Assembly (NCBI GenBank): GCA_963704645.1
Contig: OY969926.1
Span: forward strand, 384,001-448,000
Direction: 5' to 3'
Length of the DNA stretch: 64,000 bases
Source of the DNA: an uncultured bacterium
GTDB lineage: Bacteria; Patescibacteriota; JACMRA01
Each line of letters begins with the position of its first letter. Position 1 is the first letter of the stretch. The notes under the pieces are model-generated. The model worked only from the letters and a program-made list of their open reading frames with translations. It searched no databases and had not been told where the DNA came from. Below, one piece after another: positions 3,164 to 3,246 of the stretch. The translations under genes and the position numbers were made by a program.

Positions 3164-3192
3164 TTGACAGTTTGTAGTTTTTTGTATATTAT
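3164..3192 (+). promoter_or_regulatory. Sigma70-type promoter pointing antisense into the 3' end of the PemK gene
   Basis: TTGACA (3164-3169), 17-nt spacer, TATTAT (3187-3192). Confidence 0.55.
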
Positions 3193-3198
3193 AAGTTT

Positions 3199-3246
3199 AT
3201 TAATGGCCTTTGGTCGACGATCCCCCGAAAGGGGGTGATTTCTTTG
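3199..3246 (+). ncRNA. Candidate ~50-nt cis-antisense RNA to the PemK toxin 3' end
   Basis: Follows the promoter above. Contains GGCC-TTT-GGTC and CCCCC-GAAA-GGGGG hairpins (GNRA loop only on the + strand) followed by TGATTTCTTT. Confidence 0.35.

Follow-up and report, generated by a model that had tools for sequence, protein, structure and literature searches.

MazF/PemK proteins that stand alone in a genome are routinely annotated as type II toxins without an adjacent antitoxin gene, and how the cell tolerates them is a standing question. It is raised here by a pemK gene in a stretch of 64,000 nucleotides (nt) from an uncultured bacterium of the Patescibacteriota (lineage JACMRA01; assembly GCA_963704645.1, contig OY969926.1, positions 384,001 to 448,000 of the forward strand). 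We call this whole stretch the window and count positions from its first letter, unless another sequence is named. The host genome is a single contig of 1.27 Mb with 33% G+C. For one large subfamily of these proteins we propose an answer, in which the partner is a conserved, unannotated small-RNA gene that faces the 3' end of pemK. The small RNA is probably the missing antidote of PemK, and the locus would then be a two-part toxin-antitoxin-like module, composed of a solitary PemK and a convergent small RNA.

A small-RNA gene at the 3' end of pemK

The pemK/mazF-family gene lies at 3200..3634 on the minus strand, encodes 144 amino acids (aa) and is recognised by the Pfam profile PF02452 (34.7 bits against a cut-off of 23.1), whose match spans residues 27-123. 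From beyond the end of its open reading frame (ORF), a plus-strand promoter is aimed back at it, with a -35 box TTGACA (3164..3169), a spacer of 17 nt and a -10 box TATTAT (3187..3192) that has equivalents in homologous loci. This promoter, visible in the sequence and called by the promoter scan, scores 11 of 12 matches. The sequence-only reading of the locus had described it as pointing into the last 15 or so codons of pemK, and had taken the DNA behind it for a candidate antisense RNA antitoxin. From the geometry of promoter and terminator we predict a small RNA of about 47 nt (3199..3245, plus strand), which would start about 7 nt after the -10 box, end at a U-rich tail and cover, in antisense, the final 15 codons of pemK together with its stop codon. 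It comprises hairpin 1, GGCC-UUU-GGUC (3205..3215), whose helix covaries in homologues; hairpin 2, CCCCC-GAAA-GGGGG (3222..3235), found by the terminator scan as a terminator stem; and, directly after the latter, the U-rich tail UGAUUUCUUU (3236..3245; also written TGATTTCTTT), which is replaced by longer U-runs in homologues. The two hairpins and the tail are thus where they had been read. The earlier remark that the GNRA loop and the T-rich tail exist in the antisense orientation only also agrees with the scan, which calls hairpin 2 terminator-like on the plus strand alone. Terminator-like sites in the region number 4, against 0.7 +/- 0.8 in shuffled sequences, and a covariance model built from homologous loci (R1, see below) matches positions 3193-3260 with 35 bits and an E-value of 8.7e-4. 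On the strength of the comparisons that follow, we regard it as very likely that this small-RNA gene is real.

Two other origins of the element were considered and rejected. An origin of its GC-rich hairpin in a repeat or a mobile element does not agree with the mere three occurrences of the hairpin 2 14-mer in the genome; the other two are each followed by a T-run and therefore look like ordinary terminators, and they lack the flanking motif. Nor does the locus suit a coding small RNA of the type I peptide-toxin kind on the plus strand, since the RNA is only about 47 nt long and the sole plus-strand ORF there (3210..3350, 46 aa) overruns the terminator.

The convergent element is conserved at pemK loci of many phyla

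Of 27 genomes from the order to which the window belongs, 17 contain PemK relatives by six-frame search. At 28 of the 31 testable loci of this order-level set, the antisense strand carries TTGAC[AT]-17/18-TAnnnT (score of at least 10 of 12) beyond the PemK domain, at a distance that hardly varies. Locus L023 has TTGACA with a poorer -10 box, the promoter is off position at L020, no convergent promoter was found at L016, and L019 is truncated by a contig end. Sites of such promoter quality number 101 on both strands of the window's own genome, which is about 0.004 per 100 nt per strand.

The protein family extends well beyond the order. In a protein search, 1016 of 1019 candidates matched PemK at E <= 0.001 (1016 protein clusters), of which 120 were listed; PF02452 is present in all listed homologues but one. 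Species-representative genomes contain at least 394 loci with a PemK relative, and we used the best 80 as a wide set, which covers Saccharibacteria, Paceibacterota, other Patescibacteria, Alphaproteobacteria, Chloroflexota, Deinococcota, Bdellovibrionota, Bacteroidota and others. A rule-based detector made for this analysis, which requires a promoter of at least 9 of 12 matches followed by hairpin 1 and hairpin 2, was positive in 81 of 108 PemK 3' flanks from many phyla, against 3/108 when these windows were read on the sense strand, and 1/105 and 4/105 in upstream windows. About 23 of the 27 flanks that it missed show the leader and the hairpins by eye, with weaker promoter boxes; among the 108 flanks, no small RNA was found by detector or by eye at L016, L107 and L111. 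By inspection, the consensus of the RNA in the wide set is UACAAAU(U/G)-GCC-RYUA-GGC-AC-CCGAG-hairpin-CGUUUU. Plasmids of Nitratiruptor and Helicobacter suis also carry PemK relatives with an extended antisense -10 box and hairpins (by eye) in the same position.

The hairpins covary and fold on the antisense strand

The unit behind the promoter has the same composition from locus to locus: a short A/U-rich leader, a hairpin of 3-5 bp and, after a brief linker, a GC-rich hairpin followed by a U-run. RNAalifold, given an alignment of 29 copies made from sequence only, predicted both helices and showed compensatory changes at every one of the 8 pairs. This alignment served to build the covariance model R1. 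In the R1-fitted alignment of 46 copies, which leans towards the model, 92.9% of the cells are paired and 10 of 10 pairs show compensatory changes, including all 6 pairs of helix 2. Its covariation is 0.670, compared with 0.253 in shuffles (0 of 500 reach the observed value) and at most 0.215 when the partners are slid. For hairpin 1 we also made an independent MAFFT alignment of the window with 54 loci of other phyla. There, 93.1% of the cells are paired and the covariation is 0.470, against 0.154 in shuffles (again 0 of 500) and at most 0.065 in slid controls.

The strand of the fold can be read from the wobble pairs. Hairpin 1 contains 17 G-U cells and 0 A-C cells, which places the fold on the antisense strand. 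Of 80 sequences compared, 66 also give a better fold for the small-RNA strand than for the complementary one, and 2 are ties. The covariation and strand evidence is uniform in direction. Two of the signs by which the sequence-only reading had proposed to judge its idea, an antisense promoter conserved where the genes of PemK homologues end and hairpins that covary there, are hence both present. The start of the transcript is probably marked by a conserved U-A at +6/+7 after the -10 box, in which case the RNA would start with ACAAAU.

The RNA travels with PemK and outlasts it

At E <= 0.001, R1 finds 50 copies of the RNA in 17 of the 27 genomes of the order, and 34 of them are convergent to a PemK match, at a distance of -57 to +172 nt. 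The 16 lone hits comprise 13 that we examined outside the window's own genome and 3 within it. Three of the 13 adjoin PemK fragments or frameshifted PemK (L130, L133, L136); around the other 10 there is no PemK-like frame within 800 nt, and most of these copies keep a recognisable promoter. Conversely, 9 of 43 PemK matches have no R1 hit at the threshold. Five of the nine carry the RNA by a weaker score or by eye (G011:C8, G017:C35, G023:C33, G015:C66, G013:C20), and the remaining four are a pseudogene that keeps the RNA, a locus cut by a contig end, a variant and L016, which has none.

The window's own genome (G000) shows the same range of states. It has five intact PemK-RNA pairs, at window positions 3193-3260 and at genome positions 1143654, 1114951, 1115560 and 1139116. 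Two PemK pseudogenes with frameshifts and stop codons (about 465200-465700, and 512139-512570) keep the RNA and its consensus promoter (465489 and 512501). Two toxin-less RNA copies stand in tandem beside a cluster of paralogues (G000:1116125 and 1116220), each with its own promoter. Overall, the small RNA occurs without an intact PemK in at least 12 of 50 cases, and an intact PemK without a visible small RNA in about 3 of 108 (the three flanks named above). The toxin decays while the RNA stays, and an intact toxin is rarely seen without the RNA, which is the pattern predicted of an antitoxin.

Two details of these copies are recorded here. The RNA at 512501 is nearly identical to the one beside an intact PemK in a sister genome (L033). 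The paralogue cluster (G000:C1:1114951-1116290) is made of two PemK paralogues, each with its RNA, followed by the two tandem toxin-less copies, and it adjoins an ORF that by eye resembles an adenylate/guanylate cyclase.

PemK resembles a competent toxin and has no conserved protein antitoxin gene upstream

A profile search with PemK matches EndoA/MazF of Bacillus subtilis (E 3.4e-5) and, more weakly, MazF of Staphylococcus aureus. Residues R51-P52 are invariant and T70 is nearly invariant in the homologues; in the alignment with B. subtilis EndoA they fall on its RP and T, which we take to be the catalytic Arg and Thr/Ser positions. The AlphaFold model (pLDDT, the predicted local distance difference test, of 80.9) shows a MazF barrel to which a helix is added at the N-terminus (residues 2-16), and its top Foldseek matches are the MazF proteins of S. 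aureus, B. subtilis, Mycobacterium tuberculosis and Escherichia coli, with E-values from 7.9e-7; ToxN was not among the Foldseek matches listed. No NCBIfam or PADLOC model matches the window protein. Judged by the Pfam match, the EndoA profile match, the RP/T motifs and the modelled MazF fold, the toxin looks competent, and we infer that this solitary MazF/PemK-fold endoribonuclease is toxic.

Upstream of pemK in the window there is no ORF of antitoxin size, only the terminator hairpin of the preceding gene and about 160 nt of spacer. Among 109 homologous genes, 56 likewise have a start codon with no ORF of at least 40 aa ending near it on the same strand, and the upstream ORFs of the other 53 are by eye, and with no family search, the ends of unrelated neighbours. 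Across these 109 genes there is therefore no conserved protein antitoxin gene upstream of PemK, the downstream partners not having been screened systematically. The adjacent, co-transcribed MazE/PemI-type gene that defines type II systems is absent upstream at the window locus, and since no protein antitoxin gene is found we do not class the module as type II.

The start of pemK is unusual in its own way. A putative -10 box TATAAT lies 5 nt before the ATG (3640..3645, minus strand); it was read tentatively from the sequence and was not listed by the promoter scan. A (TG)nTAnAAT box 5-10 nt before the ATG, without a Shine-Dalgarno sequence, recurs in many pemK homologues (5' flanks of L004-L125; window 3635-3650, minus strand), which suggests that their mRNAs are leaderless.

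The C-terminal tail of PemK as a translated complement of the RNA gene

The protein ends in an odd stretch, KKSPPFGGSSTKGH, to which the AlphaFold model gives low confidence. The codons for about residues 129-144 (TKKSPPFGGSSTKGH) and the stop codon (3200..3247, minus strand) lie opposite the RNA gene, and the tail reads as a translation through the complement of that gene. Most of the 120 listed homologues are 127-134 aa long and end near query residue 128. The nearest ones (68-74% identity) have no tail, while two relatives at 51% identity carry almost the same one (P0005, TKKSPPFGGSSDKVH; P0006, KKSPTFVGSSAKAINN). By the genetic code, the changes from P to T and from G to V in P0006 would amount to a swap from C-G to A-U in a single pair of the hairpin. 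Several six-frame PemK matches run on into the tail across a TAA stop codon, so the tail corresponds to conserved DNA that usually lies behind the stop. In most loci the stop codon sits inside the A-run opposite the U tail of the RNA, and 15 of 72 rows compared (one being a duplicate contig), the window included, read through the whole RNA complement and stop near the RNA's 5' end. The suspicion that RNA structure had shaped the end of the toxin is borne out in this sense: the reading frames of most homologues end short of the element, whose complement, when read through, gives the tail.

Elsewhere the same process yields other peptides. A VPNGN tail is the translated complement of AUUGCCGUUAGGCAC and an RPKP tail that of UGGCUUCGGCCU. 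Long tails with VPNGN/VPSGN or RRPKP are seen in P0021, P0035, P0042, P0066, P0107, P0115 and P0117. Database PemK proteins with VPNGN or RRPKP tails thus apparently result from gene calling that continued across the small-RNA complement, the pipelines having translated an RNA gene. One might instead suppose that the C-terminal peptide (KKSPPFGGSS...) is selected as protein and that promoter and hairpins are incidental, and the similar tails in the distant homologues P0005 and P0006 speak for it. We find this hardly credible. The stop codon precedes the element in most loci and the in-frame similarity persists after it, the rows that read through are the minority just counted, the closest homologues have no tail, the VPNGN and RPKP tails are exact translations of the hairpin 1 complement, the changes in P0006 match a base-pair swap in the stem, and the tail is poorly modelled. 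The positions of the stop codons contradict the idea of a selected peptide, and we rejected it.

How the RNA may act

On balance we expect that the small RNA counteracts PemK, whichever of two routes it takes. The route that we favour, antisense pairing of a type I-like kind as its main mode of action, is plausible, if somewhat short of an even chance. We chose it because the promoter is convergent, the RNA is complementary to the 3' end of the mRNA and its terminator abuts the stop codon. In this scheme a strong sigma-70-type promoter on the plus strand, 45 nt beyond the ORF, would fire towards pemK, and the RNA of about 47 nt would terminate at the end of the PemK domain. Throughout its length it would be complementary to the pemK transcript at its 3' end: to the 3' untranslated region in most relatives and, in the window, to the final 15 codons with the stop. 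The abundant small RNA would pair with this end of the mRNA; the duplex would be cleaved, or a protective 3' hairpin would be lost, and toxin synthesis would stay low. In read-through versions such as that of the window, cleavage would leave a non-stop mRNA. Once the supply of RNA stops, PemK would accumulate. We infer transcription, pairing and decay alike. As for the class, an antisense RNA gene that overlaps the toxin transcript, as in type I systems, is present at the level of sequence only, and the toxin is a soluble 144-aa protein of MazF fold, not the small and usually hydrophobic peptide of that type.

Several observations weigh against this account. Taken alone, the single locus is not above chance: promoter-like sites in the region number 8, against 7.2 +/- 3.0 in shuffles, and the folding z-scores are -0.53 on the plus strand and -0.63 on the minus strand. 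The case therefore rests on the comparison with homologous loci, and among the R1 matches of its own genome the window copy is the weakest. In the comparison itself, the shuffle statistics overstate the significance, as related genomes are no independent samples. R1, whose training set was AT-rich relatives, finds only 10 matches (E <= 0.01) in the 80 wide loci, and a sequence-only nhmmer profile of the 5' half finds 29 of 81 wide and 0 of 32 order-level genes; because both are too insensitive, the wide counts rest on our own detector and on reading by eye. On the Nitratiruptor plasmid (L141, 1355-1543, plus strand), a 62-aa ORF that by eye looks like a ribbon-helix-helix protein follows directly after PemK and the antisense element, and its product could be a protein partner in that lineage or a part of another module. 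Finally, four features fit direct recognition of the protein better than antisense pairing. The leader (consensus U-A-C-A-A-A-U) and hairpin 1 keep their sequence across Patescibacteria-like genomes, Deinococcota, Chloroflexota and Alphaproteobacteria, a constraint that complementarity in cis does not impose; both loops are often stable tetraloops and not kissing loops; the orphan copies with promoters suggest action in trans; and the pemK mRNA looks leaderless, which leaves no 5' target.

These features lead to the second route, type III-like, in which the same RNA would bind the PemK protein directly and be an antitoxin acting on protein. Its single-stranded 5' leader (ACAAAU, probably the 5' end of the transcript) would lie in the RNA-binding groove as a mimic of substrate or product, with the hairpins as a scaffold. 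The closest solved relatives of PemK are the MazF proteins of B. subtilis and S. aureus, which cut at U^ACAU, and ACA is found in the leader well above shuffled expectation: among the wide sequences 36 of 55 contain it, where shuffles give a mean of 15.3 and at most 24, and among the order-level ones 20 of 46 do, where shuffles give a mean of 6.8 and at most 13. Yet the leader is not invariant, that of the window having no ACA, and the strictly convergent, abutting layout is typical of cis-antisense systems. The upstream, same-strand array of tandem repeats that marks type III systems is replaced here by a single unit, downstream and convergent. We consider this route unlikely as the main one, and the two are not mutually exclusive. 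They could even be joined, in what would be a new hybrid class of toxin-antitoxin system: a large MazF/PemK subfamily without protein antitoxin (Patescibacteria-like genomes, other phyla, plasmids of Campylobacterota), in which each gene is held in check by a dedicated RNA of about 50 nt that binds the enzyme directly, its ACAAAU leader mimicking an uncleavable substrate or product in the active site, while the overlap adds antisense control. If true, this proposal, which is for now a doubtful one, would explain how 'orphan' MazF toxins are tolerated.

The RNA might also be a partner of PemK without being its antitoxin, whether as the substrate, cofactor or regulator of a housekeeping RNase that is not toxic, or as a regulator that acts in trans on other genes and merely travels with pemK. 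Linkage and covariation show function and not its direction, several paralogous pairs coexist in this 1.27-Mb genome, and the family matches no PADLOC or NCBIfam model. What makes this improbable is that the patchy occurrence (17 of 27 genomes), multiple copies, variable neighbours and plasmid copies are typical of toxin-antitoxin modules, as are decayed toxin genes that retain the RNA, and that fold and aligned motifs are those of MazF toxins. More improbable still is an element that acts at the level of DNA or transcription: its strong convergent promoter and its terminator would, through polymerase collision or promoter occlusion, insulate pemK and the adjacent genes or damp their expression, and the RNA product would have no role. 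The RNA is indeed very short, the -10 boxes of the small RNA and of the putative promoter of thrS, the next gene, overlap face to face at 3187-3193, and the order PemK-RNA-thrS is conserved in L005. But hairpin 1 is unneeded for termination and nevertheless covaries with the G-U asymmetry of a folded RNA, the leader is conserved, and at some loci hairpin 2 has no U-run and is followed by a further terminator hairpin. The downstream neighbours vary as well, so thrS cannot be the general target.

Neighbouring genes

The gene thrS (704..3154, minus strand) begins 45 bases beyond the 3' end of pemK. Its putative promoter, TCGACC-18-TATAAT (3188..3217, minus strand), scores 10 of 12 matches in the promoter scan; it may exclude the small-RNA promoter and be excluded by it, because the two -10 boxes share the same bases. 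The product, a threonyl-tRNA synthetase of 816 aa, has a HAD-like hydrolase domain (Pfam Hydrolase/HAD_2, about residues 129-318) before the class II core and anticodon-binding domains, and the Pfam scan reported no TGS or editing-domain match. Two further minus-strand ORFs were noted by eye only: one at 2-697 that resembles a DUF262/ParB-like nuclease-family protein, and one at 4787-5794 that resembles a patatin-like phospholipase, with a GGGIRG motif.

Relation to known systems

A conserved RNA structure named for its association with pemK is the pemK RNA motif of Rfam (RF02913; a model of 61 positions with a gathering score of 34.8 bits), which presumably lies upstream of pemK in Firmicutes as a cis-regulator. 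No Rfam family, RF02913 included, matches at the element in the window region (E <= 10) or in 19 wide loci (E <= 1), and across the window's own genome RF02913 has no match at the places of the small RNA, its best hits being at unrelated places with E 0.74 or worse. The main text of the source of that motif does not use the word 'pemK' (Weinberg et al. 2017, PMC5737381). Transcripts that are antisense or convergent at a mazF locus, as predicted here, are described in two papers: in Enterococcus faecalis V583, mazEF has a convergent txpA-type module downstream (PMC3074167), and aMEF is an antisense RNA of mazEF (PMC8749433). As presented there, both loci are classical type II operons with MazE, whereas no MazE gene is found here, and the convergent RNA of V583 carries an ORF for a peptide toxin, for which the present RNA is too short. 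The searched literature, supplements aside, describes no convergent small RNA paired with a solitary PemK/MazF; it includes PMC2701414, the DecoyFinder preprint, 10.1101/2021.11.03.467129, PMC5737381 and PMC3074167. We therefore rate the module as an RNA-antitoxin module on a classic type II toxin fold, new relative to Rfam and to that literature.

If this is true, an RNA-antitoxin partner is added for a classic type II toxin fold, and Rfam gains a new and widespread family of bacterial small RNAs. Translation of RNA genes would account for the odd C-terminal tails that many PemK proteins have in the databases, and small, reduced genomes with several copies would gain a class of regulatory RNA.

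The nearest parallels in layout are the type I systems with overlap at the 3' end, namely txpA/RatA and bsrG/SR4 of B. subtilis and the par RNA I/RNA II of E. faecalis, whose toxins are small hydrophobic peptides. Like them, the present locus has a small RNA with a strong promoter, convergent and complementary to the 3' end of the toxin mRNA, with a shared terminator region. Unlike them, it has a toxin that is an RNase of MazF/PemK fold and 130-144 aa, and an RNA of only about 50 nt whose sequence is conserved across phyla. A type I system with an RNA-cleaving protein as toxin exists in E. coli SymE/SymR, where the overlap of SymR with symE is at the 5' end and includes the translation start, and the fold of SymE is AbrB-like. 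The antisense RNA, with the control proposed here, and a non-peptide toxin with RNase-like activity are shared with that system; the overlap at the 3' end and the MazF fold are not. The type III systems ToxIN, CptIN and TenpIN have an endoribonuclease of the wider Kid/MazF-like fold that is neutralised by a small structured RNA, and to our knowledge every antitoxin of this type is an array of tandem repeats that precedes the toxin gene on its own strand and is processed by the toxin. The present module resembles these systems in its Kid/MazF-like endoribonuclease, its small structured RNA and the lack of a protein antitoxin, and it differs from them in having just one unit, which lies convergent and downstream under a promoter of its own, and a toxin whose best fold matches are MazF proper.

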